Source: a virus. Taken from it: a stretch of DNA of 64,000 nt. Location: positions 43,283-107,282 of IMG/VR virus record IMGVR_UViG_3300036819_000087, one strand, 5' to 3'. Position numbers and translations under genes: made by a program. This document shows positions 13,825-64,000 of the stretch, piece after piece; positions within the stretch are counted from its first letter, which is position 1; the number at the start of each line of letters is the position of its first letter. A model generated the notes under the pieces. That model saw nothing but the letters and a program-made list of their open reading frames with translations, was not told the origin of the DNA and searched no databases.

Positions 13825-13917
13825 GTCGTTTCCTTCCTGGGCGGATGGGGCGATGTGGTGAGCAGGGCGACGGCCGCGGAGTGAGGGCTCCGTGGCCGTT
13901 CGCGTTGTAGGAGCAGT

Positions 13918-14160: not shown

Positions 14161-14250
14161 CCGTGGGACCACCTCTCTGGACCTGGCAGGCCCGGAAGGC
14201 ACCTCGGTTCACCGCAAGTGCCCTCACGGACCCGCATAAGCCGGTTTGGT

Positions 14251-14320
14251 AATGACAGTACAGACCGAACGGACCGAACTGTCAATGGGTTCGGGAAAGT
14301 CCGGGTTACGCTTTCCGGTG
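14251..14320. promoter_or_regulatory. Divergent promoter/operator between xis-like gene and GntR
   Basis: Minus strand TTGACA-N19-TACTGT; TGACAGT..ACTGTCA inverted repeat enclosing GACCGAAC x2. Confidence 0.65.
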
Positions 14321-14351
14321 GCAACCGAGGCGACCAGGGAGGACCCGGGCA

Positions 14352-15664: not shown

Positions 15665-15685
15665 CTGGACACGCCCACCTGGCCG

Positions 15686-15898
15686 ATGATGGCCGGTATG
15701 GGTGTCTTGCTGCTGATCGGGGCCGTGTTCGGTGTGCTAGCCGGGTGGCGGTTCAAAACCACCCACTATGCGTGGTTCGAGTGGCGGAAAACGGTCAACG
15801 CGGTGCCGATCCTGCGGAAGATCTTCTACGGGTCGGTGCGGGCTGTCGCCGGGTGGGCGGTCGCCGCCCTGATCCTGGTCATCGTCGCCGTGCACTGA
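15686..15898 (+). CDS. Small membrane protein
   Basis: Two TM segments. Confidence 0.65.
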   Translation: MMAGMGVLLLIGAVFGVLAGWRFKTTHYAWFEWRKTVNAVPILRKIFYGSVRAVAGWAVAALILVIVAVH

Positions 15899-15986
15899 CC
15901 CGACACGCCGGCCCGGTCCGGTCTTCTGGCGGGCCGGCGGGCTAGCCGGCCATGATGTGCGGTGACGAAAGGAGGCTGGCCCGGAT

Positions 15987-16134
15987 AAACGAAAACGCGC
16001 CCCCGATAGGGGCGCGCTGACAACTCGATACCTCTGGACCCCAGCCCGTGTGGTTGGCGCCGCGAGCGGCTGGTGGCCCGGTTTCCCATCCGATCTGGCT
16101 TGGCCCGTCGGGGCTTTGCAATGCCTGGAAGGCG
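15987..16134 (-). ncRNA. Candidate sRNA (~145 nt)
   Basis: Extended -10 TGTTATCGT (16148-16140), several hairpins, intrinsic terminator 16016-15987. Confidence 0.4.
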
Positions 16135-16463
16135 CTGCCACGATAACACGCCCGCCGCGCCGGGGTGAAGCATGCCCCGCCGCCTATTACCCGCGCGTGT
16201 CGCGCGGGCCGCCCACCGCGCCCCGACCCATCTCTCGAGAGAGCTTTTGTCCGGTCTGGGTGCGTGGGGAGCTCGAAGGCGCGGCGCGGTGTGCCGTGAC
16301 CTCCTTGCCTCGTGCCCCCGTAGTGGTTGGTCAGTGCCCCAGTTCTGGGGTGTGCCGCGGGGACACCAGCGGCGGGAAACGGCGACGGCACACGTGCCAG
16401 CCCCCGGTGATCTTGGGGGGAGGAGGGGGGGTGTGCCAGAGCCAAGGGCCACCCCACCACCCC

Positions 16464-16500
16464 TTGCGACTGTAATAAACTTGAGCTATGTTTACTACAG
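16464..16500 (+). promoter_or_regulatory. Promoter with overlapping inverted-repeat operator
   Basis: TTGCGA-N17-TATGTT; CTGTAATAAAC-N9-GTTTACTACAG. Confidence 0.75.
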
Positions 16501-26742: not shown

Positions 26743-27317
26743 CCGGCCACAGGCGACTCCTCGCCGCGGGCGCGTTCCTCATCTACGCCGCCGCAATCGC
26801 CGGCTCGAACTGGCTAATCAGCCACGCCGGGAACCTCACTCCGTTCGGCACTCACACGCTGCCCACTTGGCCGGGACTGGTGGCCCCGTCGGGGGTGTAC
26901 GCGGCAGCCCTGTCGTTCCCCGCCCGGGACGTGACCCAGCGGCTTACCGGCCGATGGGTGGGCCTGGCTGCGATCCTGGTGGGAGCGCTCGTATCGCTGG
27001 CCACCAGTTCCCCCGTCATCGCGGTCGCCTCGTTCCTCACCTATCTGGTATCGGAGGGGTGCGACTGGCTGGTGTACACGCCGTTGCAGCGCCGCTGGTT
27101 CGCACCCGCCGTGGTTGCCTCGGGCATGGTCGCCGCTGTGGTCGACTCGGTGCTGTTCCTCCACCTGGCCCACCTGCCCGCCGACCATCGGGCCGTCGCG
27201 GGCCTGGTCGCGGGGAAAGTGTGGGTGGTACTGGCCGCGTGGCCGGTCACCTGGTTGCTGCGGAACTGTGGCCCATTCGCGGTCCCGCAAGGAGAACTCG
27301 ATGTTGTGGCTGGGTAA
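26739..27317 (+). CDS. VUT/YhhQ-family preQ0/preQ1 transporter-like membrane protein
   Basis: SNWL..PSGVY..RDVTQ..IAVAS..SE..DWLVYTPL..VDSVLFL..GK. Confidence 0.85.
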   Translation: MTGHRRLLAAGAFLIYAAAIAGSNWLISHAGNLTPFGTHTLPTWPGLVAPSGVYAAALSFPARDVTQRLTGRWVGLAAILVGALVSLATSSPVIAVASFLTYLVSEGCDWLVYTPLQRRWFAPAVVASGMVAAVVDSVLFLHLAHLPADHRAVAGLVAGKVWVVLAAWPVTWLLRNCGPFAVPQGELDVVAG

Positions 27318-28056
27318 CCCGTCCGGGCCGAAGGTCCGGGACGCGATGCGTGCCGGGCACCTTGGCATGATGACGCAACCACGGCAGGGCAACCAGATGA
27401 TCCCTAGGGTGCCGTGGGCCGCCGACAACGGCCGCTTCTCGGACGCCACCTATGTCGGCGACGACGCCCTGCGCGCCTGGTGGGCCACGTTGCAGCCGTA
27501 CGCTGCGGACTGCCTGTTCGTGACCGCCCCCGATGTCGTGGCCGCCGCCCGCGCCACCCTCGATTACTCCACCCCGTTCCTCGCCGAGATCCGCGCGCTC
27601 GGGTTCCCCGCGGCGTTCGTCGCACAGAACGGCCTGGACCGGGTCCTGTCCAACATGTTCGGCCAGGACGACCGGACCACCTGGTGGGGGTCGTTCGACG
27701 TGCTGTTCCTCGGCGGTGTCAAGGAATGCCGCCACTGCCGTTACACCCGGTCGCCTCTGTTGAGAGACACCCCGGAACAGCCCTCGAACTCCCGGTGCCC
27801 GTGGTGTTTCCGGGCGCTGACCGAGTGGAAACTCGGCCCGGCGGCGCGGGCTCTCACTAGGGAGGCCCGGTGGCATGGACTGCGCGTGCACATGGGTCGG
27901 GTGAACTCACTGCGACGGTGCCAGATCGCCGACGCGATGGGCTGCGCGACCACGGACGGCACCCACCTCACCCGCGAACCGGACTTTGCCCTCACTGAAG
28001 TGATCGGCTGGCACCGGGCGGTCAACGACCAGGTTCCCCTCTGGGAGGCGTCATGA
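27301..28056 (+). CDS. DpdA/TGT-like transglycosylase-fold protein
   Basis: WAADNGRFS..APDVV..VAQNG..FLGG..EWK..VHMGRVNS..DGT; overlaps VUT gene. Confidence 0.7.
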   Translation: MLWLGNPSGPKVRDAMRAGHLGMMTQPRQGNQMIPRVPWAADNGRFSDATYVGDDALRAWWATLQPYAADCLFVTAPDVVAAARATLDYSTPFLAEIRALGFPAAFVAQNGLDRVLSNMFGQDDRTTWWGSFDVLFLGGVKECRHCRYTRSPLLRDTPEQPSNSRCPWCFRALTEWKLGPAARALTREARWHGLRVHMGRVNSLRRCQIADAMGCATTDGTHLTREPDFALTEVIGWHRAVNDQVPLWEAS

Positions 28057-28880
28057 GCCTCGCCGGCCCCGGCCGCATGATCACCGGCACCGCCGAGGAC
28101 CTCGTCACCGACTGGGCAGACGCCGACGTGATCACCGGCCAGCCGACGGGATGGGCCGTGTTCAACCAGGCCCGCACCCACCGGTACCTCCTGGCCCGCT
28201 ACTGGGACACCACCCCGGCCGTGCAGACGCTGACGTTTGTGATGCTGAACCCCTCCGACGCGGACGCTTTCCGCAACGATCCGACCGTCGGCCGGTGCAT
28301 GCGGTTCGCGCACCGGGAAGGCTACGGCGGTATCCGTGTCCTGAACGCCTACGGATACCGGTCCCCGCGGCCCGCCGACCTCCGGGCCGCCGCCGACCCG
28401 GTCGGGCCGTCCAACGATGCGGCCCTGGACCAGTGGGCTCGGGGCACGGTCGTGGTCGCGTGGGGCGCGCACCCGTTCGCCGCCGGCCGGGTCGCCGAGG
28501 TCGCCGCCCATCTCACTGCTGGCGGCGCGCGTCTGCTGTGTCTCGGCACCACCATGGACGGTTCCCCGATCCACCCGCTGGCCCGCGGCCGGTCCCGCGT
28601 CCCCGACGACGCGCCACTAGTCCCGTGGGCGCCTCCAGATGTGGGGGCGGCCCCCACCCGGGCCGCTTCCGCTCCACTCCCGCCGCCGGCCGGCACGTCA
28701 GGGGAAGGGCCACCGGCCGGCGGCGGGGATTTCCGTACCGCATGGGGCCGTGCCCTCGCCCGGCAGCACGCCGACACCCGCCGCCGCGTCACCCAGCCCC
28801 GCCGCCGCCCGGCTCGGGGCATCCCCGGTGACGCGGGGCCGGGCATGATCCGCCGCCCACCCCCCGGGAGCGCCGCATGA
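28053..28880 (+). CDS. DUF1643 protein
   Basis: RYLL.R.W..FVMLNPSDAD..DPTV.RC..VAWG..LGTT.DGSPIHPL. Confidence 0.9.
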   Translation: MSLAGPGRMITGTAEDLVTDWADADVITGQPTGWAVFNQARTHRYLLARYWDTTPAVQTLTFVMLNPSDADAFRNDPTVGRCMRFAHREGYGGIRVLNAYGYRSPRPADLRAAADPVGPSNDAALDQWARGTVVVAWGAHPFAAGRVAEVAAHLTAGGARLLCLGTTMDGSPIHPLARGRSRVPDDAPLVPWAPPDVGAAPTRAASAPLPPPAGTSGEGPPAGGGDFRTAWGRALARQHADTRRRVTQPRRRPARGIPGDAGPGMIRRPPPGSAA

Positions 28881-31045
28881 GACCACTGCGGGCCGGGTCA
28901 CTATGCACCGGGTACGGCGGCCTCGACCAAGCCGTGCTCGGCATGTTCGGTGGCGAACTGGTGTGGGTCGCCGACAACGAACCCGGCGCCGCCCAGATCA
29001 TCAACCACCACCATCCCGGGGTGAAAAACCTCGGCGACATCACCACCGTCGACTGGACCACGGTCGAACCGGTCGACATCCTCATCGCGGGTTTTCCTTG
29101 CCAGGACATCTCATCGGCCGGGCTCCGGGCGGGACTCCAAACCGGGAACCGGTCGGGGTTGTGGCATGTGATCACGGAAGCGATCCGGGTCTTGCGCCCG
29201 CGACTGGTGCTCCTGGAGAACGTGCGGGCCATCCTGACGGCCCGCGGAGACCGGCCCACCGACGAACACTTGCGCGCCGAAGCAACCCTGCGGGCCGCGA
29301 ACCAGATGCTCAACCACCTCGCCCAGGCCGGGAACATCGCACACAGCAGAGGAGATCGCCGTCGTGTCCAGGCAATTCAGTGGCGTACCGATCGCGTCGC
29401 TCGACTCCGCAAACGGGCGGTGGCTCGATGCGACCACCACGAACGGAGACTTGTTCGGGCAGTTGGAACCGTTTGCCGGTCGCTGGCCGACCTCGGGTTC
29501 AATGCGGAGTGGGATTGTGTACGAGCGGCCGATGTCGGCGCACCGCATATCCGCGACCGCTGGTTCGCTCTCGCATGGCCTGATGAAAACCCCGACCGCC
29601 CAGTTGGGGATCAACGGGGGGAGTCAGCCCGAGGAGAAACGGCGGGCGGGCGGGCATGGGCCGACGCTGGCCGACCAGATCGAGCACTCACTGATGGCGA
29701 ACTTGCCGACCCCGACAGCGCGGCCGGGGGACTCGTCCAGCCGCGGACCGGACCCGGCACGATACCGGGGGCCGAAGTCGCTGGGCGGGCGCCGGTCGAA
29801 CCTGGACGACGCGGTCGCGGCGATCGAGGACCGGTCTCCGTGGCTGGGCGATCTGCTGCCGGTCCCGGGGGTGCAGGCGGACGGCCCGGAGGTCCCGGAG
29901 GTGACATCGATGCTGCCGACCCCACTGTCGGGGGAGGCGCGGCACGGGTCACCGAACCAGCACCGGAGCGCCGGCGACACGATGCTGACGGGGGAGATCC
30001 TCGCGCTGGCGAACCCGGACCGGGGACTGAGCCCGGTCCGGGCCGGGCGGCTCGGCCAGGCGGAACCACCGACATTGCCGACCCCGAACGCGCGGGATGG
30101 CAAGGGCCGGGACCTGCCGACCCGGGGCGGGGGACAGGGCCTGCCGTCGGCGGTGCTGCCAACGCCGGTGTCGCATCCGACGGGCCGCACCCCGGAACAG
30201 CACATGGATGCCCGGTCGCGGGACGGCCGGACCGTCCCGTGCGACCTGGGGGTGGCGGTGTCATCCCTGGAAGCCTCACCGGCGGCGACGGGTACCGGCT
30301 CGGCCGGGCCGCCTGGGAACGGTCCCTTGATCCCGACCCCGACGGCGGCGGACGGGGACCGGGCCAGCCTGGTGTACCCGAGGGGGAACCCGACACTGGC
30401 CGGGACCGCGGTCCAGTTTCTGCCAACCCCGGCGGCCGGGGCGTTCAACGACGGGGAGAGCCCCGAGTCGTGGGCGGCCCGGAACGAGCGACTGCGGGCG
30501 AAAGGCTACAACGGGAACGGGATGGGCAAACCGCTGACGGTGGTCGCGCAGGAACTGCTGCCGACCCCGCGGGTGACCGAACGGGCCGGGATGCAGCCGA
30601 GCCCGGCCACGGTCCGGGGGACACACGGCCGGGACCTCGGCCCGACGGTCGGGGGACTGCTCCCGACACCGAGCGCGGCCGACGGGCTCGGTGGCCACAT
30701 CAACCGGAGCGGCCCCCGGGCGGGGGAACTTCTGCTGGGTGGCCAAGCGCGGCAGATAGCGGAGTCCAGTGGGGCAAATTCGCCCCCGCCATCGCCCGGT
30801 GGGAGTTCCTCACCGGACGGTCCGCCCCAGCTCCCACTGACATGGGACGGACCGGCCCCCGACTGAGCCCCCGGTTCGTCGAATGGATGATGGGCCTCCC
30901 GCCCGGCTGGGTCACCGACGTACCCGGCCTGTCCCGGTCCGCCATGCTGAAAGCACTCGGGAACGGCGTGGTGCCGCAACAGGCGGTCGCCGCGATCTAC
31001 CTGCTGGCCACCCGGATCCGCGAGACCTGGGACATGGCCGCATGA
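28877..31045 (+). CDS. DNA (cytosine-5) methyltransferase with very long variable region
   Basis: Motif I SLCTGYGGLD, IV GFPCQD, VI LENV, VIII GAPHIRDRWF, X LGNGVVP. Confidence 0.92.
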   Translation: MRPLRAGSLCTGYGGLDQAVLGMFGGELVWVADNEPGAAQIINHHHPGVKNLGDITTVDWTTVEPVDILIAGFPCQDISSAGLRAGLQTGNRSGLWHVITEAIRVLRPRLVLLENVRAILTARGDRPTDEHLRAEATLRAANQMLNHLAQAGNIAHSRGDRRRVQAIQWRTDRVARLRKRAVARCDHHERRLVRAVGTVCRSLADLGFNAEWDCVRAADVGAPHIRDRWFALAWPDENPDRPVGDQRGESARGETAGGRAWADAGRPDRALTDGELADPDSAAGGLVQPRTGPGTIPGAEVAGRAPVEPGRRGRGDRGPVSVAGRSAAGPGGAGGRPGGPGGDIDAADPTVGGGAARVTEPAPERRRHDADGGDPRAGEPGPGTEPGPGRAARPGGTTDIADPERAGWQGPGPADPGRGTGPAVGGAANAGVASDGPHPGTAHGCPVAGRPDRPVRPGGGGVIPGSLTGGDGYRLGRAAWERSLDPDPDGGGRGPGQPGVPEGEPDTGRDRGPVSANPGGRGVQRRGEPRVVGGPERATAGERLQRERDGQTADGGRAGTAADPAGDRTGRDAAEPGHGPGDTRPGPRPDGRGTAPDTERGRRARWPHQPERPPGGGTSAGWPSAADSGVQWGKFAPAIARWEFLTGRSAPAPTDMGRTGPRLSPRFVEWMMGLPPGWVTDVPGLSRSAMLKALGNGVVPQQAVAAIYLLATRIRETWDMAA
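29364..30866 (+). CDS. Nested +1-frame protein with ~10 LPTP repeats (putative MTase second subunit)
   Basis: 500-aa open frame with its own AGAGGAG RBS; WPTSGSMRSG motif; repeated (L)LPTP. Confidence 0.7.
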   Translation: MSRQFSGVPIASLDSANGRWLDATTTNGDLFGQLEPFAGRWPTSGSMRSGIVYERPMSAHRISATAGSLSHGLMKTPTAQLGINGGSQPEEKRRAGGHGPTLADQIEHSLMANLPTPTARPGDSSSRGPDPARYRGPKSLGGRRSNLDDAVAAIEDRSPWLGDLLPVPGVQADGPEVPEVTSMLPTPLSGEARHGSPNQHRSAGDTMLTGEILALANPDRGLSPVRAGRLGQAEPPTLPTPNARDGKGRDLPTRGGGQGLPSAVLPTPVSHPTGRTPEQHMDARSRDGRTVPCDLGVAVSSLEASPAATGTGSAGPPGNGPLIPTPTAADGDRASLVYPRGNPTLAGTAVQFLPTPAAGAFNDGESPESWAARNERLRAKGYNGNGMGKPLTVVAQELLPTPRVTERAGMQPSPATVRGTHGRDLGPTVGGLLPTPSAADGLGGHINRSGPRAGELLLGGQARQIAESSGANSPPPSPGGSSSPDGPPQLPLTWDGPAPD

Positions 31046-31066
31046 GACCGAGAGGAGGTGACCCCG

Positions 31067-31951
31067 TTGTCCGTCAAGGTGACCTCGTGGGTCTGGGACC
31101 ATTCCCGGACCAAGAAAAACGACAAGCTCCTCATGCTGGCGATCGCTGACAACGCGAACGAGGACGGCACCCACGCCTGGCCGTCCAACACCGAGCTGCA
31201 ACGCAAAACCGGGCTGAGCCAGCGCGGTGTCCGCATGGCGATCGCCGAGTGTGTGCGGGTGGGGGAACTGCATGTCGAATATAACGCCGGACCAGGCGGA
31301 ACCAACCGCTACACGGTGATCATGACCGGCGGCACCCCGGCAAAACCTGCCCGGGGCAAAACCTGCCCCCCGGCAAAATATGCCCCAGGCAATCCGTGCC
31401 CCCCCGAACCTGTGGATAGCGAGTTTCCGCAGGTCAACGAGGACTCTGACGGCCCCCCGGCAAAATCTGCCTCCCCTCAAATTGTGCCGGGGGAGGGGGC
31501 AAACTCTGCCCACGGAATCATCCATGAACCGTCCGATAAAGATCTTCATCCGCGTGAGGCCGTTGCCGCGGTCGCTGCCCGGTTGCCCCGCCTCGATGAG
31601 GACGATTCATCTTCGAAGGACCCCGACCGGATACCCCGCCTGGTGGTTGAACTGATCATCCAGCGGACCAAAGTCCACATCGACCTCGACGAGGCACGCC
31701 GCGTCGCTGCGGATCTTCTCGACGGCCGGGAGGTCGCCAACCCCGTCGCCTACGTGCGGCAGGCGCTCCGCCAGGAACCGGATCCGCTGACCCGGTTCGC
31801 TCTGCGACGACCCGCCGAGGGCACCCTCCAAGGCCAGGCCGGCGACTCCGCCTGCCGGTGCCTTGGCTCCCGGTGGGCCGACAACCCCGATGGGCCCGGT
31901 GTTGTGCCGTGCCCCGACTGCTCACCCTCGACCGCCCGGAGGACCGCATGA
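31067..31951 (+). CDS. Phage replication initiator (N-terminal HTH)
   Basis: KLLMLAIADNAN..AWPSNTEL.RKTGLSQRGV; internal iterons. Confidence 0.85.
   Translation: MSVKVTSWVWDHSRTKKNDKLLMLAIADNANEDGTHAWPSNTELQRKTGLSQRGVRMAIAECVRVGELHVEYNAGPGGTNRYTVIMTGGTPAKPARGKTCPPAKYAPGNPCPPEPVDSEFPQVNEDSDGPPAKSASPQIVPGEGANSAHGIIHEPSDKDLHPREAVAAVAARLPRLDEDDSSSKDPDRIPRLVVELIIQRTKVHIDLDEARRVAADLLDGREVANPVAYVRQALRQEPDPLTRFALRRPAEGTLQGQAGDSACRCLGSRWADNPDGPGVVPCPDCSPSTARRTA
31339..31510. repeat. Iteron array, putative replication origin (GGCA-N5-TGCC)
   Basis: Copies at 31339, 31355, 31372, 31388, 31459, 31498; DnaA-box-like TGTGGATAG at 31411. Confidence 0.8.
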
Positions 31952-33543
31952 CCGGCCACGCGATCATCGCCCAAGCCGACGCCCGCCACCTGCCCCTGCC
32001 CGACGCCAGCGTTGACCTGGTGCTGTTCTCGCCGCCGTACTTCGGGCAGCGGTCGTACACCGACGGCGGCGCCGCCTACGCCGGGCAGCTCGGATCGGAA
32101 CCCGACCCGTGGGCCTATCTCGAGAACCTGTTTACGGTCACCGCTGAGGCGGTCCGGGTCCTGAAGCCGGGCGGGAACCTGTTCGTGAACATTGGCGACA
32201 AGCATTCGACGTACACGGGGGCGAACTGGGGCAACGCCCGGTCGTTCGATGGGAACCGGGGCCAGGTGCCGCGTGGTGGCCCGGTCAACGCCCCCGAGGT
32301 GTACGGCATCCCGTACAAGTCGAAGATGGGCCTGCCGTGGCGGTATGCGCTGGGGTGTGTCGGCGGGACCGGGTCGATGCTCGACGACGCCGGCCTGGTG
32401 AAGCTTCTCCTGCGGGATGTGGCGCTCGGGGTCCTCGACCTCGCCGACGCTGAGGTCCTGGTCGACCAGCTCGCCGCGACGCGGGCGGGTGGGCTGGGCC
32501 TGTCGCTGCGTCAGGAGATCATCTGGGCGAAGCTGAACCCGATGCCCGAATCGGCCCGCGACCGGGCCCGGACCGCCCACGAGCCGATCTTCCATTTCAT
32601 CAAGGCCGGGCAGCGGCGCACCTACCACGCGACCGACCTGATCCGGGAACCGATCCAGTGGCCCGGCAAGTCCCGCACCTCGAACAAGGCCAACGACGTG
32701 TGGGGGCAGATCCACCCGTCCAAGCAGGGCAACCTGGGCAAGGGTGACGAGAACCCGCTGGGGAAGATCCCCGGGTCGGTGTGGTGGGCGGACCCGGACG
32801 ACCTGACCGAGCCGGTCCGCACGGTGTGGGAGATGGCGACGACCCCGCTGAAACTGCCGAAGGCGCTGGGGGTCGAGCATTACGCGGCGTTCCCGTTCGA
32901 GCTCGCCCGCCGTATCGTGCTCGGCTGGTCCCCCGAACGGGTGTGCGGCGTGTGCGGGGAAGGGCGCCGCCCGATCACAGAGTCGGTCCGCACGTTCGAC
33001 GGCCAGCCCCGCGGGGATCTCCCGACCTGGGCGGCCCCTGACGCGCCGCGGCGGGCTCCCAACGGAGCCGGTCACTGGCGGTTCGGCACTGACCGGCGGA
33101 TCCTCGGCCAGGCGTGCGCATGCACCCCGTACACCGACCACCCCGAACGGCGCGGGACCTCATTCCTCGACCACGACCGGGCGGCCGTGTCCGGCCAGTC
33201 AACCGACGCGGCCGGACGCTGGGCACGCTACACCGGATCGGCCACCGGGCCTCGTGGCCCGGTCCGCGAATACCACCTGGACGGCTGGACGCCGCCGCCC
33301 AGCACGCCGGGTGTGGTCCTCGACCTGTTCGGCGGCGCCGGGACCACGGCCGCTGTCGCGGTCGCCTACGGCCGGACCGGGATCTCACTGGACCTGTCCC
33401 ACGACTACGGGCGGGCTGCCCGGTGGCGGGTCACCGACGAGGGGGAGCGGGCCCGCATCCTCGGGGTGAAGAAACCCGACCCGGTCCGCCCGGACCAGGG
33501 CAGCCTGTTCGACGACCTTGAGGTGAACGGAGCCAGCGCGTGA
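31948..33543 (+). CDS. Beta-class N4C/N6A DNA methyltransferase
   Basis: FSPPY, NIGD, IIWAK.NPMPES, HYAAFP, VLDLFGGAGTT. Confidence 0.92.
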   Translation: MTGHAIIAQADARHLPLPDASVDLVLFSPPYFGQRSYTDGGAAYAGQLGSEPDPWAYLENLFTVTAEAVRVLKPGGNLFVNIGDKHSTYTGANWGNARSFDGNRGQVPRGGPVNAPEVYGIPYKSKMGLPWRYALGCVGGTGSMLDDAGLVKLLLRDVALGVLDLADAEVLVDQLAATRAGGLGLSLRQEIIWAKLNPMPESARDRARTAHEPIFHFIKAGQRRTYHATDLIREPIQWPGKSRTSNKANDVWGQIHPSKQGNLGKGDENPLGKIPGSVWWADPDDLTEPVRTVWEMATTPLKLPKALGVEHYAAFPFELARRIVLGWSPERVCGVCGEGRRPITESVRTFDGQPRGDLPTWAAPDAPRRAPNGAGHWRFGTDRRILGQACACTPYTDHPERRGTSFLDHDRAAVSGQSTDAAGRWARYTGSATGPRGPVREYHLDGWTPPPSTPGVVLDLFGGAGTTAAVAVAYGRTGISLDLSHDYGRAARWRVTDEGERARILGVKKPDPVRPDQGSLFDDLEVNGASA

Positions 33544-42586: not shown

Positions 42587-43039
42587 CTCCTCGGTTGTTT
42601 CGGGTGATGCGGGTTATTCGTTCCCGGCGGGGCTGGTGCCGTCCCCCTGACCCTCGGCCACCCACTCGGCGTAGCCGTACCCAGGCGGGGGGATCTTGCC
42701 ACCCCACGCCTCGGTGTCAGATTCGAGGCGGGCCAGTTCCTCGCGGGCGGCGCCCACGTACGCGGTCCAGCCCGGCAGATCCTGGTCGGGGTTCGGGACT
42801 TCCCCGATGATGATTCCGCCCTGGATGCCGGTAAAGGCCATGAAGTCAACGTCGATAGCCTCGTCGATCGCTGCTTTCACCGCAGCCGCGTCGCCGCGGG
42901 TGTGTGCCTCGAAGGATTGGGTCATCAGTTCCAGGACGCGGACGGTGCGGCGACGCTGTTCTAGCTCGGACACGGTTAGGTGCTCCTCGGTTGTTTCGGT
43001 GGTGCGGGGTTAGTCGTTCCCGGCGGGGCCGGTGCCGTA
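42587..43039. repeat. ~57-bp imperfect direct repeats flanking gene 42614-42973
   Basis: 42587-42643 vs 42983-43039. Confidence 0.85.
42614..42973 (-). CDS. Hypothetical protein
   Basis: RBS motif. Confidence 0.75.
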   Translation of the reverse strand: MSELEQRRRTVRVLELMTQSFEAHTRGDAAAVKAAIDEAIDVDFMAFTGIQGGIIIGEVPNPDQDLPGWTAYVGAAREELARLESDTEAWGGKIPPPGYGYAEWVAEGQGDGTSPAGNE

Positions 43040-43684
43040 CCGGCCCGCGAGGATGTAGGCGGCGTGGCCGTCGAACTGGCCCCGGTTGGGGTCGGCTGGC
43101 TCAGCCCAGCCGGTGAACGGCGAGTAGTAGACGATGGTCACACCGAGCATGGTGGCCGGGTTGCGTTCGCGGTACATCGCGAACGTAGTGCCGGGGGTGT
43201 TCGGGGCGAATCCTTCCTGGGTGTTGCAGCTAGGGCACAACCATCCGCGGATCAGGCCGGTCAGGTGGTCGTGGTCAAGGAACTGCGACCGGCCCCCGCA
43301 GATGGCGCACCGGCCGGCTTGCCACTCGACGAGCATCCCCCACCCGTCGTCATCCGCCGTCCGTGTGCGGTGCGAGTCCTCGACCGGCCAGTCCCAGCAC
43401 GCGGGCGGCCGTTGCCGCTCGGCCAGGGCGGCCCGCTTGGCCGGCTCATCCAGCGCGGCGGCCTGCCGGGTCAGCACGTCCAGCAATGCGTGCTCAGAGT
43501 CGGTCAGGTGTTTCCGGCATGATGGCGGTGTCTCGACCGGGGGCACCGGCAGGCCGAGCATTTCGGGGACGCGCCAGTAATCACCCGGCCGGGCGACACG
43601 ATCGTTCCGGCACGGTGTGCCCCTTTTCGCCGGGCGCCCGCATTTAGTCACAGGCCGGCCGATGTCATCGGGTTCTTCTTCCAC
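43010..43684 (-). CDS. Endonuclease VII-like protein
   Basis: WQAGRCAICG..DHDHLTGLIRGWLCPSCN. Confidence 0.88.
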   Translation of the reverse strand: MEEEPDDIGRPVTKCGRPAKRGTPCRNDRVARPGDYWRVPEMLGLPVPPVETPPSCRKHLTDSEHALLDVLTRQAAALDEPAKRAALAERQRPPACWDWPVEDSHRTRTADDDGWGMLVEWQAGRCAICGGRSQFLDHDHLTGLIRGWLCPSCNTQEGFAPNTPGTTFAMYRERNPATMLGVTIVYYSPFTGWAEPADPNRGQFDGHAAYILAGRYGTGPAGND

Positions 43685-44688
43685 CTGTCCACGTCGCGGA
43701 CGTACTTCATCAGGATGGGGGAGCCGTCGCGCCAGCCGCCGTGGCGGCCGATCGAGAGCAGGTCGGCTCCTCCCAGGTAGGCGCCGGTCGCGCCGCCCGC
43801 CCGGAGACTGTGTGCCCTGATGGCGTCACCGGAGATCCCCGCGGTCAGCGCGGCCCGGTGCATGATGCTTCCGATCGCTTTTCCGGTCAGGCGGCCGTCG
43901 GCCGCTGCGCGGCCGGCGAGGTCGACACCGGGTTCGCCGTAGATGTGCCCATGGCGGTCCACGTACCGCAATAGCGGACCCGAGGTGATGCCGCGGGCGG
44001 CCAGGACCGCGAGCCACGCGCGGGTGAGACGGACCGGGCAGGTGAGCGGGTCGGAACCGTAGGGGACGGCAACCTTCCGCCCGGCCGCCATCTGGTCCCG
44101 CTTAGCCTTCCGGATGGTCACGTCCATCCCTTGCTCGACCTCGGCGAGATCACCGATGGACAAGCGGACCAGTTCGCTGCGCCGCGCCATCATCGCCCAG
44201 CCGAGCACCAGCACGAGCCGGTCCCGCAGGAACAGGACAGAGTCACCGTCCAGGGCCTCGGTGATGGCTTTGAGCTGGCGGACGGTCAGGGCGGCGGCCG
44301 GCCGCTCGTTCGGCTGCCCCCGGTCGGCTCGCTCGTTGCGGTATGTCTTCACGACGGACCGGGCGGGGAGTGTGTCGGGTGGCTGGTGGCCCCCGAGTTT
44401 GTGAATGACCCGGACCGAGGAGACGGCCCGCATGATCGTCGCCGGTGCCTTGTTCTCGTCGGCCAGGTGGGAGGCGTACTCGGCGAGGGTCTCCGCCGTG
44501 CACGGCAGCGCGGCCCGGCCAGCTCCCGCGCACCATTCGGCGAAGATCTTCCAGTCGCTGGCGTACGCCTGCCGGGTTGATTCGGGGACACTCGCAGCGA
44601 TCCGGTCGAGGACCCGGGCGGACACTGTCGTATCGGGGCCGGCTCCAGGCGCACGGTAGGCAACCACATCGGCTGTGTTCACACACAC
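43648..44688 (-). CDS. Cre-like tyrosine recombinase
   Basis: STRQAYASDW..RDRLVLVLGW..RRSEL..K.KRDQ..HSLRAG..HGGW..MKY. Confidence 0.93.
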   Translation of the reverse strand: MCVNTADVVAYRAPGAGPDTTVSARVLDRIAASVPESTRQAYASDWKIFAEWCAGAGRAALPCTAETLAEYASHLADENKAPATIMRAVSSVRVIHKLGGHQPPDTLPARSVVKTYRNERADRGQPNERPAAALTVRQLKAITEALDGDSVLFLRDRLVLVLGWAMMARRSELVRLSIGDLAEVEQGMDVTIRKAKRDQMAAGRKVAVPYGSDPLTCPVRLTRAWLAVLAARGITSGPLLRYVDRHGHIYGEPGVDLAGRAAADGRLTGKAIGSIMHRAALTAGISGDAIRAHSLRAGGATGAYLGGADLLSIGRHGGWRDGSPILMKYVRDVDRWKKNPMTSAGL

Positions 44689-44739
44689 TCCCGTCTGGGA
44701 TACCAGATCCCCCGCTTATAAGACTCCAGAATACCGTGG

Positions 44740-44854
44740 GTTGCGGCCCTGTCGCGGGACGGTTGACGGCGTGTTGCGTAACCTGCCCGGCCTGCTTGTT
44801 GCGGTCCTGTTGGCGGTGGGTTGCGGGTTGCCGCCACCTTGCCGGGCCGTTGCC
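44740..44854. repeat. Ten GTTGC-like repeats in three 11-bp phased blocks
   Basis: 44740/51/62/73; 44798/809/820; 44827/38/49. Confidence 0.7.
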
Positions 44855-44860
44855 TGGTAC

Positions 44861-44895
44861 TGGATTCCCGGCGCGGACGGGGTTACCGTGCAAGC
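44861..44895 (+). promoter_or_regulatory. Leaderless promoter of the peptide gene
   Basis: TGGATT-N17-TACCGT, ATG 6 nt downstream. Confidence 0.6.
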
Positions 44896-45117
44896 ATGGA
44901 CAAGAACCCGCGCATAGGAAAGCGCATCGCAGCCACCATCCTCGCCGCCGTGATGGGAGGCGGGGCCCTGGCCATCGCGGGCCCGGCCTACCTCTACCAC
45001 GGGAAGGCCCCCCAGCACAGTTCGGCCTACCTCTACCACGGGAAGGCCCCCGCCACGGACTGGGGAGTCGCTGTCGCCGACGGTGCCGCTAGCCCGGACT
45101 ACCTCTACCACGGCTGA
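44896..45117 (+). CDS. Secreted peptide precursor (73 aa) with three YLYHG cores
   Basis: Sec signal MDKNPRIGKR-IAATILAAVMGGGALAIAGPA; AYLYHGKAP x2; C-terminal DYLYHG. Confidence 0.85.
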   Translation: MDKNPRIGKRIAATILAAVMGGGALAIAGPAYLYHGKAPQHSSAYLYHGKAPATDWGVAVADGAASPDYLYHG

Positions 45118-45256
45118 CCGCCCATCCCCCTCTGATCCCCGGCCCGGCACCTCACACACTCACCCGCGCCGCGTCCCACCGACCGGTCCCGGCCTGTTAT
45201 CCCAAGGCCAATGGTGGAGGTGACCGGGCCGGTCTATGCCTACTAGGCTTGGCCGT

Positions 45257-45493
45257 GTGAGCATGACAGCCCGTGACCTGGCCCTGGTGGCCCGGACACG
45301 GGCCGATCTGGTCTCGGGCCGGGCCGCGGCGGCGCGGAAAGCGGCCGATGTGGGGCTCGGGGAGATCGCCGGGGCGCTCGGTGTGTCTCATCAGGCGGTG
45401 TCGATGTGGGAGCGGGGTCTTCGGCGGCCGCGGGCTGGGCACGCCCTGGCCTATGGGCGGGTCCTCGCGCAGCTCACCCGCGCCGCCGCCTAA
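45257..45493 (+). CDS. XRE HTH regulator, leaderless
   Basis: GLGEIAGALGVSHQAVSMWERG.RRP; TAGGCT 7 nt upstream of GTG. Confidence 0.85.
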   Translation: MSMTARDLALVARTRADLVSGRAAAARKAADVGLGEIAGALGVSHQAVSMWERGLRRPRAGHALAYGRVLAQLTRAAA

Positions 45494-46332
45494 TCTCCCC
45501 AGGCGTCGAACGCGGCGGCCAGCAGTTCCCGCGATTCGGTTTCGCTGGCCGCGGCCGACCACATCTCCTCGAACGCCATCTCGTGCCGCCACACCGTGTC
45601 TTCCTCGTCGAGGCGGTCCAGGTCGCCGCCGAACTGGGGCACGAGCACCTCGTCGGGGACCGGTACCCCGGCCAGGGCGGTGAACGAGGCGTGGATGAAC
45701 GGGGGCAGGTCTCCCGGTACCTCGTCGGAGTCGAGGGGCAGCACCCGCACCGACACCGGGGCGGGGACCTTCAGTATCCGCTCGACCTGCTGCCGCATGA
45801 CCACTTGGTCGCCGAACTGCCGGCGCAAGGCGGGCTCGCCGATGAGCGCCCGGACGGCCAGGCCGCCGCGCTCGAACCGGGCCTGCGGGGCGGTGATCTC
45901 CTCAACCAGCGCCCGGACTGCTCCCGGGGGCCGGGGGAAGATCCGCGCCTGGGAGGTCAGGACGGCGGCCGCGTAGCCGCTGGTCCGCAGGAGGCGGGGC
46001 AGCGTCAGGGGGGCCCACTCCAGGATCGTGTTCGCGGCCGTGAACGTTTCCGGTGGCCTGCCGGGCCCGCGCCACGGCTTGCCGCCCGCCGCGAGGATCT
46101 GGTCGGCGAGGTCGAGGATGGCGGCGCGGCGGCGGGCCGGCACGTTGTACAGGTCGAGGAGCTTGGCGAGGTCGCTGACTCGGACCGGGTGCGCGCAGTT
46201 CTCGATCCGGGACACTTTCGAGATGGACCAGCCTGTGTGGCGGGCCACCCACTCGCTGTTCTCGCCGAGGGCGTGCCGGGCCTGGAGGAGTGCGGTGGCT
46301 ATCCGCCGGTCGAGCACTGATGCGACCGTCAT
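45490..46332 (-). CDS. XRE-DUF5753 (WhiJ/Scr1-like) regulator
   Basis: GWSISKVSRIEN..LLDLY; PRLLRT.GYA..IGEPALRR.FG..VMRQQ. Confidence 0.9.
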   Translation of the reverse strand: MTVASVLDRRIATALLQARHALGENSEWVARHTGWSISKVSRIENCAHPVRVSDLAKLLDLYNVPARRRAAILDLADQILAAGGKPWRGPGRPPETFTAANTILEWAPLTLPRLLRTSGYAAAVLTSQARIFPRPPGAVRALVEEITAPQARFERGGLAVRALIGEPALRRQFGDQVVMRQQVERILKVPAPVSVRVLPLDSDEVPGDLPPFIHASFTALAGVPVPDEVLVPQFGGDLDRLDEEDTVWRHEMAFEEMWSAAASETESRELLAAAFDAWGD

Positions 46333-46369
46333 GCGCTGATAATAGGCACGCAACTAGCCGTGCAAAAAG

Positions 46370-46770: not shown

Positions 46771-47256
46771 CTACTCCCCATCACCCGCCGCGTCAACGGG
46801 AACATTGACGGGAGGTGAGGGGGTGGGCTCCTTGACGGCGGCGGGCCGGTCCCGGGCCGGGGCCCACGTCTTGCGGCCGCCGAGCCGCCGGTACCGCTGC
46901 TGCATCGCCTGTTTCGATGGGTAGCCGAGCTGGTCGGCGAGCTGATCCCAGGTCAGGCCCCGGTTCATCGCCGCCTCGATCAGGTCCTGCTCGAAATAGT
47001 CGAGCCGGAACCGCTCCCCCGGTATCAGGCGGAGCGCGTCGACCACATCGTCGGCGAGGATCTCATCACCGGCCAGGCGGGGCACGGTGGCCTCCTTGCC
47101 GAAGCTGAGGGCAAGATGCACGTCGCTGAGCGCGTCTGCGGGAAGGATGCGCGGCTGGCCCGGTGTGTTGTAGCTCGCGTTGTAGCGGTCCAGGCGGGCG
47201 AGCACCTCGGTCTCGGCCTTGCGGGCGAGGTACCGGTGCGGGCTGGGGTTCGTCAT
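46771..47256 (-). CDS. HTH regulator
   Basis: LIEAAMNRGLTWDQLADQLGYPSKQAMQQRYRRL. Confidence 0.8.
   Translation of the reverse strand: MTNPSPHRYLARKAETEVLARLDRYNASYNTPGQPRILPADALSDVHLALSFGKEATVPRLAGDEILADDVVDALRLIPGERFRLDYFEQDLIEAAMNRGLTWDQLADQLGYPSKQAMQQRYRRLGGRKTWAPARDRPAAVKEPTPSPPVNVPVDAAGDGE
46791..46810. promoter_or_regulatory. Operator copy 1, CGTCAA-N8-TTGACG
   Basis: 19/20 match to inverted copy 2; contains a -35. Confidence 0.75.
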
Positions 47257-47288
47257 GCTCCCCCGACGATAACCCCCCCACCCCGCTG

Positions 47289-47308
47289 CGTCAATGTTCA
47301 CGTTGACG
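47289..47308. promoter_or_regulatory. Operator copy 2 providing -35 hexamers of two divergent promoters
   Basis: Minus: TTGACG-N17-TATCGT; plus: TTGACG-N18-TAATGT. Confidence 0.8.
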
Positions 47309-61200: not shown

Positions 61201-61584
61201 GTACACCGGGTAGAAGTTCGCCCCACTGGAGACGGTGTATTCCTCGACGGTGAACCCGGAGGTGCTGGTGCGGCCCTGGACCGCGAACGACAGCCACCCG
61301 GTCACCGGGGGGATGGCGAGCGCGTCGGGGCAAACCCACACCGCGCAACGGGACCCGGTGTAGCCGGCGCCGGAATCGGTCAGGAGCCGCCACAGGTTCC
61401 CCACCGAATCAGCGACCGACCCCGCACCCATCCCGGCCGTGTCCTGCGAGCCGAGGTTGAGACACCACGCGGCTTTGACGACCAGCAGGTTCCCGGCCGT
61501 GTTCGCTGGTGACACCGACAACGGGGCCGGGTCCCCCTCCGCGCTGGGGGTCCACGGGGTGGTTTTGACCAGGGTGAGGGTCAT
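58294..61584 (-). CDS. Large minor tail protein (CBM-like + LamG-like domains)
   Basis: Directly follows TMP; RGRQYEL..G.M; NPCF..YSMSAWVY; TFEMWF..YVNG. Confidence 0.8.
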   Translation of the reverse strand: MTLTLVKTTPWTPSAEGDPAPLSVSPANTAGNLLVVKAAWCLNLGSQDTAGMGAGSVADSVGNLWRLLTDSGAGYTGSRCAVWVCPDALAIPPVTGWLSFAVQGRTSTSGFTVEEYTVSSGANFYPVYDFGPWQAVQGPGTAATMTAVTGQADYVFSVAASGYNGATAPTVTGPGTGWTAAAGGTTLTPLTFSQNQIVMHSAWGAFNAGTVTAAWGYGTASTGLSACMGGLTQASAPPTITNPNYPLVYVEASFGAEPGDPTAPIFEAGWVDLTPYTLTQGETAGIHVERGRQYELAQPESGTMTVQMNNVAGDFDPQWPGSPFYCDAINSNPCFQQGIAGWSAVNSARLAASAAQTFASGQGAVSAGSLQFTGNGTTAAPGARCEAETVTPNAPYSMSAWVYNAAGWSSGVTVAINWQTAAGSAISTSTSSAAAIPAATWTQVTLTDVTPPATARLATGQVNAAGTPGTAATFWVAEAGPNQGTGPMGTGLLRLEIPVRVTAYWQGRRYPVGSGYVERWPQDWPDMPQWGMSVLTATDQVGAASSTNMPSAVQGEILCDAPYACFPFSEQYSVATNTINGVEKTASECDGLIAVNTSRTNQQTAAYHDGGAEPVETGQSLGFLGDSGTGMGCTGYSTFDMSGQRGPGAQYGPDYGLPQIGPGTGCTFEMWFTVQPIADEAGTISIMQLFQLLGQPNIASTQPNTISPGFILAAGMYFPATSGNPVTFIEATQNGVITVGTTPATLGDLVHMVIVITSGQVSFYVNGVFQNTISGTAAAGPIVGLVWGEASWPYQLAGFFNSNWNYGMAYGTVYPYLLDANRVVQHYQSGATGFAGDRIMSRFARYLAWSFAGLQPAGPGAVTDNMGLGPAYSTDGTALADSLNGDALSSGAMWFANANGNLVMLPRPAIYNLPTSVTFGDDTLLGEVPYEPAAGFDYDNTYLQNIVQATLNQGPNTLIAPVEKDQASINTYLARGPLQQTVSGSSPQDAFDRAYWSLAKYKQPSMRVRSLTVRAARYPTAFTPILQTDLADVAAVNRRPVAGPAYNLPVMIQKVTHDIGPGVWDTTYQMSPYDQEAAVLTADTGNDVLGANTLAW

Positions 61585-64000
61585 ACCGGCTTCACCACCC
61601 CCGTCACCGTGCCCGAGTTGCGGACGTTGTACCGGTAAAGCTGCGATTGGAAGATGGAGAAGAGTTTCTGGCCGTCCACGTTGACCGTGATCGTGCCACC
61701 CCCGGCGGCGGCGGCCTGGCCGCCGATGGCCTGGACGGCGGGGGTCCGCAGCGCCGCCTGCCGGACATTGAGGCTGGTGGCCAGGTTCACCCCGGCCGCC
61801 ATCTCCCGGGACGCGGCCTGGACGAGGCTGTGGCCCTGCCGGATGCCCTGCGCGAGCTGCCGGGCGATACTCAACCCCGAATACATGGGGTTCCCCGCCC
61901 CGGCCAATGGTCCTTTTTTCGCTGGTGAGAACGGCAAAAACGATTTGATTTCGGAGACGACCCCGGACACGGCCGACCCGGCCGCACCGACCATCGATTT
62001 GATGCCGTTGATCAGGCCCTGAACGATCGACTTGCCAGCGGAAAACAGGAGCCCGCCGAGGTTGCCGAGCGCGGAGCGGATCCGGCCTGGGATGGAGCGG
62101 ACGTACCCGAGCATCCGGGACGCGACCGACACGACCGCGTTGTATCCGCGATCCCACCAGCCGCGGAACAGGGAGCCGAGCTGACCGAACCAGGAGAGGA
62201 TCTGGCGGACCGCAGCGACCGCGTTCCGTACCTGGCCTTCGATGAGGCGCATCACGGCGGCGACCACGGCCGCCGCCGCATTAAACCCGGCCTTTATCAC
62301 ATTTTCGCAGAATTTAACAGCGGCCGATATTCCGGATTTGATTTGCGCCCAGTATTTGATGATAAGGACGACGGCCATTCCTATGGGGCCGGTCATAATT
62401 CCGAGGATCAATGGCCAGTGGGCTTTGACGAATCCGACGACGGCGGAGACGGCGGCGGTGACGGCGTGGAGCGCGGCCAGAAACCCCGCCTTCAAGGCGT
62501 TACCTACCGCGTTCACTACGTCACGGAACGTTTTGAAGTGGATGTAGCAGTACACCACCGCAGCCACGAGCGCGATCACAGCGGCGATGATCAGGAAAAT
62601 TGGATTGGCGTCCATGACCGCGTCGAGGACGGCCTGAGCCATCGCCCACGCCCGGGTGGCCACGGCTACGGCCATCTGGGCGACCTTCAGCGCGACGGCT
62701 TTGACCGTGGCGGCGGCCCACTGGACACCGGCCAGGGTGGCGGCGGCGGCCGACCGGGCCATCCCGGCCGCGAACTCCGCCCCGGCCGACGCGGCCGAGG
62801 CCAGCGCCGACCCGAACGACTTCAGCTTCGTCCAGGCCCCGGCCCCCATGGCGACCGCGAACCGGCCCGCCCACTGGGCGTCCTCAGCCAGCGCCGACCC
62901 GAACCCCTTCAGCCACGTCCAGCTCGACCCCCCGGCCCCGCCGATCGCCGACATCGCCGACTTGATCTTCCCGCCGAGGCTGCCCCACTTGCCGGTGCTC
63001 GCACTGGCCGCCTGGGTGGCGTCCCCGAACCCCTGCACAAAATGCTTGATGTTGGACACCCCGTGCGCGAACGGGGTGACGAACTCGGTGACGGCCTGCT
63101 TCCCCGCCTTCGCCCAGCTCAGCAGCTTGCTGCCGGTGCTGGTGACCAGCAGGATGTTCATCCCCCACTTGACCAGGGCCGGGTTGGCCTTCATGAACGC
63201 GGCGGCCAGCCCCGTGATCTGGGGAAGCGCTTTCAGCCACAGCATGTTCGACGCCGACCCGCTCATATCCTTGATGAACTGGGCGGCGACAGTCGCGAGA
63301 TTACTCAGCGTGGTGACGATGGTCGGCCCCTGGGTCCGGACCATGGTCATGAACTCCTGGAACCCTTTGGTCCCGTGGAGCCCGGCCGCCCACTTCGCGA
63401 ACCCGGCGGTCATTTTGTCCAGCCCGCCCAGCACCGTCCCCGAAAACGGCTGGAAGGTCATGAGCAGGGACCCGATACCGCGGACCACGTTGCCGATCGC
63501 GGTGGCCAGCTTCTCGATATCGGGCCCGGTGGTCTTGGCGATCGAGGAGAGGAATTTCTGGAACCCCGACGAGTTCAGGCCGTGCCCGAGCTGGCCGATG
63601 ATGTGGGTCAGCGCCTTCTCGACCGGGGGCAGCAGGACACCCATGGCCCGGAAGATCGGCGGCAGGAGCGCCAGCGCCTTGGCGATCACCCCGGCGACCC
63701 CAGGCGACGCCTTTTGCAGGAACTTGGTCCACTCGCCGGTGACCCCGTTGAGCTGTTTCTGCATTTTGCCGAGGTTGCCGGTCAGTTTCTTACCGGCCGC
63801 GTTGGCATTCTCGACCTGGGTGACGACACCCTTGACGACCAGGCCGAACACGCCGAGGCCGAGCCCGGCCGAGGCGACCCCGGACACCAGCCCGCCGGTG
63901 ACCGCGATCAGCCCAGCCGCGAGTGGCTCCAGGCTGCCGGTCGCGAACCCGGCGACCAGCCACAGCTTCTGGAGCATCCCCAGTTCCCCGAAGCCTTTCT
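61581..64000 (-). CDS. Tape measure protein (3' part)
   Basis: Ala/Gly-rich helical; ANPI..II; AGKSIVQGLINGI..PFSPAKKGP. Confidence 0.92.
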   Translation of the reverse strand, partial: KGFGELGMLQKLWLVAGFATGSLEPLAAGLIAVTGGLVSGVASAGLGLGVFGLVVKGVVTQVENANAAGKKLTGNLGKMQKQLNGVTGEWTKFLQKASPGVAGVIAKALALLPPIFRAMGVLLPPVEKALTHIIGQLGHGLNSSGFQKFLSSIAKTTGPDIEKLATAIGNVVRGIGSLLMTFQPFSGTVLGGLDKMTAGFAKWAAGLHGTKGFQEFMTMVRTQGPTIVTTLSNLATVAAQFIKDMSGSASNMLWLKALPQITGLAAAFMKANPALVKWGMNILLVTSTGSKLLSWAKAGKQAVTEFVTPFAHGVSNIKHFVQGFGDATQAASASTGKWGSLGGKIKSAMSAIGGAGGSSWTWLKGFGSALAEDAQWAGRFAVAMGAGAWTKLKSFGSALASAASAGAEFAAGMARSAAAATLAGVQWAAATVKAVALKVAQMAVAVATRAWAMAQAVLDAVMDANPIFLIIAAVIALVAAVVYCYIHFKTFRDVVNAVGNALKAGFLAALHAVTAAVSAVVGFVKAHWPLILGIMTGPIGMAVVLIIKYWAQIKSGISAAVKFCENVIKAGFNAAAAVVAAVMRLIEGQVRNAVAAVRQILSWFGQLGSLFRGWWDRGYNAVVSVASRMLGYVRSIPGRIRSALGNLGGLLFSAGKSIVQGLINGIKSMVGAAGSAVSGVVSEIKSFLPFSPAKKGPLAGAGNPMYSGLSIARQLAQGIRQGHSLVQAASREMAAGVNLATSLNVRQAALRTPAVQAIGGQAAAAGGGTITVNVDGQKLFSIFQSQLYRYNVRNSGTVTGVVKPV

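Follow-up and report, generated by a model that had tools for sequence, protein, structure and literature searches.

Organization of the Locus

The gene considered here encodes a 73-residue protein with three copies of the pentapeptide YLYHG and is located in the regulatory block of a tailed phage, with the lysis genes on one side and a group of uncharacterized genes on the other. The window, which is the whole 64-kb stretch of DNA that was analyzed, is the right-hand part of a 107,282-bp IMG/VR virus record with a completeness of 96% (CheckV); coordinates refer to the window unless positions of the record are specified. Scans with PHROG and Pfam profiles identify a tailed-phage gene set in the record, comprising a large terminase, a portal protein with an extension and head proteins, together with genes for the tape measure, minor tail proteins, glycosyltransferases, an endolysin, and a holin; many open reading frames of the record have no annotation. 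The tape-measure gene (61581–63977) is truncated by the right end of the record and head and tail genes resume at its left end (record positions 1–1000), indicating that the nominally linear record is a circularly permuted or circular genome that was opened inside the tail module. The GC content of the window (70.6%) and the presence of actinomycete-specific families (DUF5753), and these two features only, point to a high-GC actinomycete as the host. No close relative suitable for a comparison of synteny was found among IMG/VR and GenBank phages; the closest match to the large terminase is at most 55% in IMG/VR and at most 48% in GenBank phages, and a DNA search of phages with the peptide locus gave zero matches. 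The features of the locus are as follows.

43010–43684, minus strand: endonuclease VII, in the regulatory block
43648–44688, minus strand: tyrosine recombinase (Xer/integrase-like), transcribed away from the peptide gene
44738–44859, plus strand: array of about ten GTTG(C)-like boxes, grouped into three blocks with a phasing of 11 bp and lying in the interval that separates the recombinase gene from the peptide gene
44884–44889, plus strand: −10-like hexamer TACCGT (TANNNT), 6 nt before the ATG, read by eye
44896–45117, plus strand: gene for the 73-residue precursor (P0001), ATG at 44896 and TGA at 45115–45117, with coding-type GC3 and five homologs of the same layout
44896–44988, plus strand: predicted Sec-type signal peptide (residues 1–31, manual criteria), n-region MDKNPRIGKR with a net charge of +3
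44989–45003, plus strand: unit 1, YLYHG, directly after the predicted signal peptide and followed by KAP
45028–45042, plus strand: unit 2, YLYHG, inside an exact 29-nt duplication, preceded by a conserved H-S-S-A and followed by KAP
45100–45114, plus strand: unit 3, YLYHG, immediately before the stop codon (45115–45117)
45236–45493, plus strand: small XRE-family helix-turn-helix (HTH) protein, 85 residues (or 76 from the ATG at 45263), 118 nt downstream of the peptide gene and in the same direction
45490–46353, minus strand: XRE-DUF5753 regulator (WhiJ/Scr1/Sco1979-type), convergent with the small XRE gene, with a 4-bp overlap
46771–47301, minus strand: protein of 176 residues, with a weak HTH at its C terminus, that belongs to the regulatory block

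The preliminary description of this DNA had placed the peptide gene divergent from a recombinase, which agrees with the location of the tyrosine recombinase gene on the minus strand, and had listed an XRE and then an XRE-DUF5753 regulator downstream; both regulators are present in that order, but the XRE-DUF5753 gene is on the minus strand and converges on the other two. The recombinase and peptide genes are separated by a spacer of 207 bp, which contains the array of GTTG(C)-like boxes. The array includes 8 exact GTTG sequences, ten times the mean density of the window and the highest density for any 160 bp in the 64 kb. Its sequence makes the array a candidate for an operator, an iteron, or an arm-site region; probably it is a region of regulator-binding sites or of recombinase arm sites that controls the divergent promoters.

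A leaderless promoter had also been proposed for the peptide gene. The elements on which this depends are present, with the TACCGT hexamer 6 nt before the ATG at 44896 and no Shine-Dalgarno sequence preceding it, but a scan with the σ70 consensus does not find a promoter at TACCGT; a leaderless transcript starting at 44896, with TACCGT as a candidate promoter, is nevertheless plausible. No terminator was found between the peptide gene and the small XRE gene, so that the two may be cotranscribed. The sequence CCGTG[CT][AG]AGCATG overlaps the initial ATG of the peptide gene (44886–44898) and is found again at 45253–45265, where it includes the internal ATG (45263) of the small XRE open reading frame. 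The small XRE gene may start at this second ATG, to give a product of 76 residues with a start context similar to that of the peptide gene.

The Probable 73-Residue Precursor

The GC contents of the three codon positions in the peptide gene are 0.68, 0.54, and 0.86, respectively, and the third-position value is 0.90–0.93 in sliding windows; in DNA with a GC content of 70.6%, third-position values of 0.86–0.93 indicate that the open reading frame at 44896–45117 is a real gene. The 25 codons upstream, back to a TTG at 44821, have a GC pattern resembling that of noncoding DNA, and the homologs described below begin at the equivalent of the ATG at 44896. The sequence of the product is MDKNPRIGKRIAATILAAVMGGGALAIAGPA-YLYHG-KAPQHSSA-YLYHG-KAPATDWGVAVADGAASPD-YLYHG-stop, in which the units occupy residues 32–36, 45–49, and 69–73 (starting at nucleotides 44989, 45028, and 45100). 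A 14-nt core sequence, TACCTCTACCACGG, has 3 matches in the window as compared with 0 in 100 shuffled sequences. The first two copies are contained in an exact 29-nt duplication (44984–45012 and 45023–45051, with a period of 39 nt), whereas the third is 76% identical to the 29-nt repeat and has different flanks. The three copies of YLYHG, the duplication starting at 44984 and 45023, and the location of the last copy at the stop codon are as originally reported.

Among 1,710 open frames of at least 30 residues in the record, P0001 alone contains a complex 5-mer in three copies, one of them at the C terminus. A separate region of the window, around 30506–31655 (record positions 73788–74937), has open frames on both strands with 5-mers repeated three times (APRQN on the plus strand and FCRGA on the minus strand); the presence of the repeats on both strands suggests a tandem repeat in the DNA. 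In the head module, to the left of the window, four proteins (record positions 12853–16485, 27105–28490, 28519–29433, and 29423–32932) have in common a tag of the form K-[VE]-G-P-[EH]-G-Y-x-H-G-[WY]. A relationship between the GP-x-G-Y-x-H-G-W part of this tag and the peptide units was considered and dropped, the likeness to G-P-A-Y-L-Y-H-G being a loose one (GP, four residues, HG) with the Tyr out of register.

The N-terminal region has the characteristics of a Sec-type signal peptide. The basic n-region is followed by 21 uncharged residues that end with AGPA and conform to the −3/−1 rule, with ALA|I as an alternative cleavage site, and the site after AGPA would expose the first YLYHG, in agreement with the initial assignment. 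It should be noted that the signal peptides were identified by manual criteria in P0001 to P0005 and that P0010 was judged by eye from its sequence. By the same manual criteria, P0001 has the size (about 10–120 residues) and Sec-type signal peptide that characterize pro-peptides of RRNPPA systems. Several other possibilities for the protein were rejected: export by the Tat pathway, as the twin-arginine motif is absent across the family; a lipoprotein, as there is no Cys; and a copper site of the ATCUN type, as the His is at position 4 of the unit and not at position 3. The bld signal of Streptomyces coelicolor has a mass of 655 Da and is itself unidentified; identity with this signal was also dropped, as the mass of YLYHG is 651.30 Da and the homologs have different units.

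Homologous Proteins

Five homologs were found among about 15 billion proteins, all from metagenomes or Logan assemblies, by a combination of a word-index search, a profile search, and an exhaustive phmmer search that covered 1.84 billion cluster representatives; these searches gave no further members. The six members are as follows.

P0001 (window): 73 residues, YLYHG three times
P0002: 74 residues, YLLHG three times
P0003: 64 residues, YLLHG three times
P0004: 75 residues, YLLHG three times
P0005: 63 residues, YVLHG three times
P0010: 88 residues, YLLHG four times

All six have an n-region with a net charge of +2 to +4 followed by 18–22 uncharged residues rich in Ala, Gly, Leu, and Val. A small-x-small (−3/−1) site directly precedes the Tyr of the first unit in five of the six, and the sixth has Ala-x-Ala a few residues upstream. 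The pattern Y[LV][LY]HG fits every one of the 19 units; Tyr1 and His4 are the invariant side chains. Within each protein the units are identical (19 of 19), whereas between proteins they differ at position 2 or 3 and the spacers diverge. Spacer 1 retains H-x-x-A and spacer 2 retains [DE]-[WL]-G; Ala precedes the unit in 15 of 19 cases, and internal units are followed by Lys, except in P0004, which has Ser at this position. Every member ends with a unit. The mature parts contain 4–5 His and 3–6 Tyr residues each.

Copies 1 and 2 are also identical in part of their flanking sequence, as seen in the 29-nt repeat of the present gene and in a sequence, HGSPT, that is present twice in P0004, which indicates that recombination contributes to the concerted pattern. 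However, in every member copy 3 retains the same five residues although its flanks are different, a pattern that favors selection acting on the unit.

Searches for a known family or fold gave little. No Pfam family, FG-GAP and VCBS included, matches P0001 to P0005 at E values up to 10, no PHROG or NCBIfam model matches the family, and a profile search of PDB sequences gives nothing below an E value of 0.3. The ESM Atlas model has a pLDDT of 0.44 and a pTM of 0.17, and its neighbors in that resource are generic small secreted proteins of actinobacteria with scores of 0.86 or less; AlphaFold2, with a five-sequence alignment, gives a pLDDT of 53 and predicts a helix at residues 5–21 only, with coil after it. 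Thus neither model predicts a fold beyond the signal helix. These results bear on the suggestion that the family is a remnant or mimic of a blade of an FG-GAP β-propeller that folds or oligomerizes into a sheet. The AYLLHGK strands and an E-W-G-x-x-V-A-G segment resemble one FG-GAP repeat, and phmmer matches the family to an 801-residue repeat protein of the FG-GAP type, P0006 (E 1.2e-4, 47% identity over about 40 residues, in four stretches), the match including AYLLHGKADNHTSA against AYLLHGKAPSHSSA. Nevertheless, AlphaFold2 predicts no strands, the calcium-binding DxNGDG part is missing, and blade strands have no need to be identical and are not so in real propellers, so that we give this origin a probability close to negligible.

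An alignment-based search of IMG/VR, GTDB genomes, and JGI metagenomes gave no confirmed relative, and tblastn with P0003 gave no match in GenBank phages or PLSDB plasmids. A degenerate DNA pattern for three copies matches itself in the window and, elsewhere, only unrelated repeats of low GC content and one off-frame locus in Embleya. The latter (Embleya sp. AB8, NZ_JBMHHY010000023.1, 5193–5753) is a 187-codon open frame rich in repeats of the G-Y-V-H-H-G-W/R type and is probably unrelated to the YLYHG family. No family member was found when 185,579 species, each represented by one genome, were scanned for the pattern, or when 401 genomes of Streptomycetaceae and 401 of Actinomycetes were searched with a profile; the profile matched only signal-peptide look-alikes on DUF4331-type proteins. 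The earlier suggestion that the peptide might mimic a pheromone of the host is therefore left without support, there being no member in these 802 actinobacterial genomes or in the wider scan.

Taken together, the sequences give good support to the view that the gene encodes a multicopy exported pro-peptide, which was part of the preliminary description and which now extends to six members with 3–4 identical units, concerted change, a C-terminal last unit, and no predicted fold. Identical units that change in concert, a copy number of either 3 or 4, and the constant presence of a unit at the C terminus are expected if each unit yields the same product and are difficult to explain by a fold; the conserved borders of the units, with Ala before and Lys, Ser, or the end of the protein after, also favor a pro-peptide. 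On these grounds we consider it somewhat probable that short peptides are released from the precursor, whatever their purpose.

The main alternative is that the protein acts as a whole, either anchored in the membrane by its N-terminal helix or as a released, flexible tail of 42 residues, in which the three YxxHG motifs would form a multivalent ligand for an envelope protein of the host, a cell-wall component, or a metal ion; superinfection exclusion and the masking of a receptor by the prophage are examples of such roles. An uncharged stretch of 18–22 residues is among the longer ones for a signal peptide and could also be a membrane anchor, which counts against a signaling function as well. 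The abundance of His and Tyr in the mature parts fits a ligand of this type, the gene has no linked protease, receptor, or importer, and the lysogeny regions of prophages commonly express small membrane or secreted proteins. However, the strict identity of the units, their variable number (3 or 4), and the constant terminal unit are no easier to account for by a single binding surface than by a fold; no structure is predicted, and a small-x-small site precedes the first unit in five of the six members. Given the length of the hydrophobic stretch, action of the whole protein is a serious competitor that we nevertheless consider rather unlikely.

Regulators and the Search for a Receptor

The preliminary description had noted that no RRNPP/TPR receptor was visible in the window, and this result can be extended to the whole record, as profiles for TPR_12, BTAD (SARP), and GerE match nothing in six frames of the 107 kb; in control searches, TPR_12 and GerE each matched 14 of 14 genomes and BTAD matched 13 of 14. 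RRNPPA pro-peptides have an adjacent TPR receptor of 250–500 residues, whereas the only nearby protein of that size in the present phage is the XRE-DUF5753 regulator, which is modeled as an HTH and a PLD-like domain. Both the absence of a receptor from the record and the PLD-like, rather than TPR, character of the C-terminal domain of the neighboring regulator count against a signaling function, as does the great rarity of the family, with 6 proteins in about 15 billion.

The assignment of the regulator is based on matches to PF13560 (HTH_31, E 1.5e-9), PF19054 (DUF5753, E 1.2e-29), phrog_9908 (E 2.9e-41), and the NCBIfam Sco1979 family (E 7.6e-21). The regulator has no match among phages, and a plasmid collection gave a single match, from Nonomuraea, at 32%. 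A model from a 16-sequence alignment (pLDDT 87, pTM 0.80) has an XRE HTH followed by an α/β domain, and structure searches with this C-terminal domain identify the PLD superfamily (the N-domain of SauUSI, PLD, Zucchini, vaccinia F13, the C-domain of TrmBL2, FAM83, and Nuc), with Z scores of 8–10 over about 115–135 residues; the Foldseek E values are weak, at 3e-3 and above. There is no invariant His or Lys in the alignment of the regulator, which suggests that the PLD-like domain is probably noncatalytic. The model raises the prospect that the PLD-like fold may apply to the whole of the large DUF5753 family of Streptomyces. A six-frame search of the record for the DUF397 partner (PF04149), with E values up to 1, gave nothing, so that in this phage the regulator is an orphan with a possible sensor domain. 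It is the only candidate receptor that was seen. Co-folding of the regulator with residues 31–73 of the precursor gave a score of 0.00, a result that counts neither for nor against binding.

The lack of modifying enzymes in the window, also recorded previously, likewise holds for the entire 107 kb in regard to radical SAM and P450 enzymes. This concerns the proposal that the protein is a multicore precursor similar to those of RiPPs, in which Tyr and His would be cross-linked or otherwise modified by enzymes of the host or unrecognized enzymes of the phage to give an antibiotic, a metallophore, or some other natural product. The precursor does have repeated cores, with 3–4 identical units in each protein, in which the side chains of Tyr1 and His4 are invariant; short multicore precursors containing Tyr are known, including those of the fungal ustiloxins (YAIG/YVIG) and the bacterial biarylitides and cittilins, which have Tyr/His or Tyr/Tyr cross-links. 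However, neither Radical_SAM nor P450 profiles match the record, in which, it should be recognized, many open reading frames lack annotation; the immediate neighbors of the gene are a recombinase and regulators, and it is unusual for a Sec signal peptide to be present in RiPP precursors of bacteria, the modification of which takes place in the cytoplasm. We regard a product of this kind as very unlikely.

Proposed Mechanism

We infer export, proteolytic release, the exact ends of the peptides, the signaling role, and the receptor from the features described above. In the proposed sequence of events, signal peptidase would cut just before the first Tyr, and extracellular proteases of the host would then cut the exported part into three identical short peptides with the invariant core Tyr-Leu-Tyr-His-Gly. 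The peptides would build up in the surroundings of cells that carry the phage or have become infected by it and could act as a diffusible cue for the choice between lysogeny and lysis, for induction, or for transfer of the plasmid-like phage, the cue being read after re-import or at the cell surface. The location of the gene in a block of recombinase and XRE regulators, behind a dense and phased array, was counted in favor of a signal. An arbitrium-like role in communication is possible, by a reasonable analogy. Overall, the reading in which a Sec-exported pro-peptide releases identical short peptides as a diffusible cue for a decision of the phage is our tentative preference, to which we assign somewhat less than an even chance.

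The same architecture would be expected if the released peptides were effectors and not a density signal, inhibiting an extracellular protease or a peptide transporter of the host or disturbing a sensor of the host or of a competitor, and the fact that no cognate receptor is seen in the phage is in keeping with this. Nevertheless, the lack of a homolog in the host-type genomes that were searched leaves mimicry of a host peptide without support, and no result suggests a target; we consider effectors of this type unlikely.

For peptides that act as a signal, a more specific possibility is that the PLD-like DUF5753 domain senses peptides of the form -Y-x-x-H-G and that the XRE-DUF5753 regulator acts on the GTTG array to set lysogeny, induction, or conjugative transfer, which would constitute signaling by a phage-plasmid through a receptor other than a TPR protein. 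Although this combination is improbable in our estimation, it would, if correct, provide the first class of ligand for the large WhiJ/Scr1 family of Streptomyces and extend phage peptide signaling beyond Bacillota.

To our knowledge, peptide signaling by phages, as in arbitrium and the phage Rap-Phr systems, is limited to Bacillota and always involves TPR receptors, and actinomycetes are held to signal by small molecules such as butyrolactones. A literature search found no description of a peptide system in an actinophage. As a member of a conserved group of exported precursors with 3–4 identical units, and encoded among the regulatory genes of a plasmid-like actinophage, P0001 is a concrete and inexpensive test case. 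If the peptides are a signal, they point to a type of receptor that is not yet known; if they are not, these exported, phage-encoded repeat proteins nonetheless form a family that has not been described.

Relation to Described Peptide Systems

Precursors with an organization similar to that of P0001 are found in eukaryotes, as yeast prepro-α-factor and the ustiloxin precursor UstA, which contains repeated YAIG sequences. These have a signal peptide, identical short units, and spacers with a basic residue at the border of the unit, as in the present family, but differ in being eukaryotic and in being cut by Kex2 at Lys-Arg, with dedicated enzymes in the case of ustiloxin; no such enzymes were found here.

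The regulator in the neighborhood of the peptide gene is related to a different type of system. We know of no description of a link between the XRE-DUF5753 family and secreted peptides. The regulator has the HTH_31 and DUF5753 domains found in the XRE-DUF5753/DUF397 pairs of Streptomyces, but DUF397 is absent from the phage, and the peptide gene and the regulator gene are convergent with one gene between them. Members of this family (WhiJ, Scr1/Scr2, and SCO1979) normally pair with a small cytoplasmic DUF397 protein and not with a secreted peptide (PMC10364602).

In the arbitrium system (AimP-AimR-AimX) of SPbeta-like Bacillus phages, as here, the phage encodes a pro-peptide with a C-terminal unit, and the last 6 residues of AimP set the decision between lysis and lysogeny; the notion of a phage that gauges the abundance of its own kin would apply to both. 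Unlike P0001, AimP has one copy of the peptide and an adjacent TPR/HTH receptor, AimR; no element resembling AimR or AimX is seen in the present phage, and there is no similarity in sequence.

The nearest published analog is the tandemly duplicated Phr of phages phi3T and phi105, which belongs to the Rap-Phr systems of the RRNPPA family. The Phr pro-peptides of these Bacillus phages are tandemly duplicated, with 1–4 copies of a unit of 5–6 residues (Felipe-Ruiz et al. 2024, PMC11343458). The copies are cut by signal peptidase and extracellular proteases of the host, and the active peptide is typically C-terminal, as it is in AimP (PMC11343458). The predicted pro-peptide P0001 and these proteins are similar in being small, phage-encoded, and of the Sec type, with a repeated short unit, one copy of which is C-terminal, and in having genes in a regulatory region, that of a temperate phage in the case of Phr. 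They differ in host and receptor, the phi3T and phi105 systems being from Bacillota with the TPR receptor Rap adjoining, whereas the present phage has a probable high-GC actinomycete host and no TPR protein. The sequences of the units are unrelated; furthermore, the copies are strictly identical in the present family but only pseudo-repeats in the phi3T type, and in the present family processing and activity are putative. By analogy with these systems, it is reasonable to view the product of the present gene as a phage pro-peptide of the pheromone type that occurs without the canonical receptor and in a new phylum.
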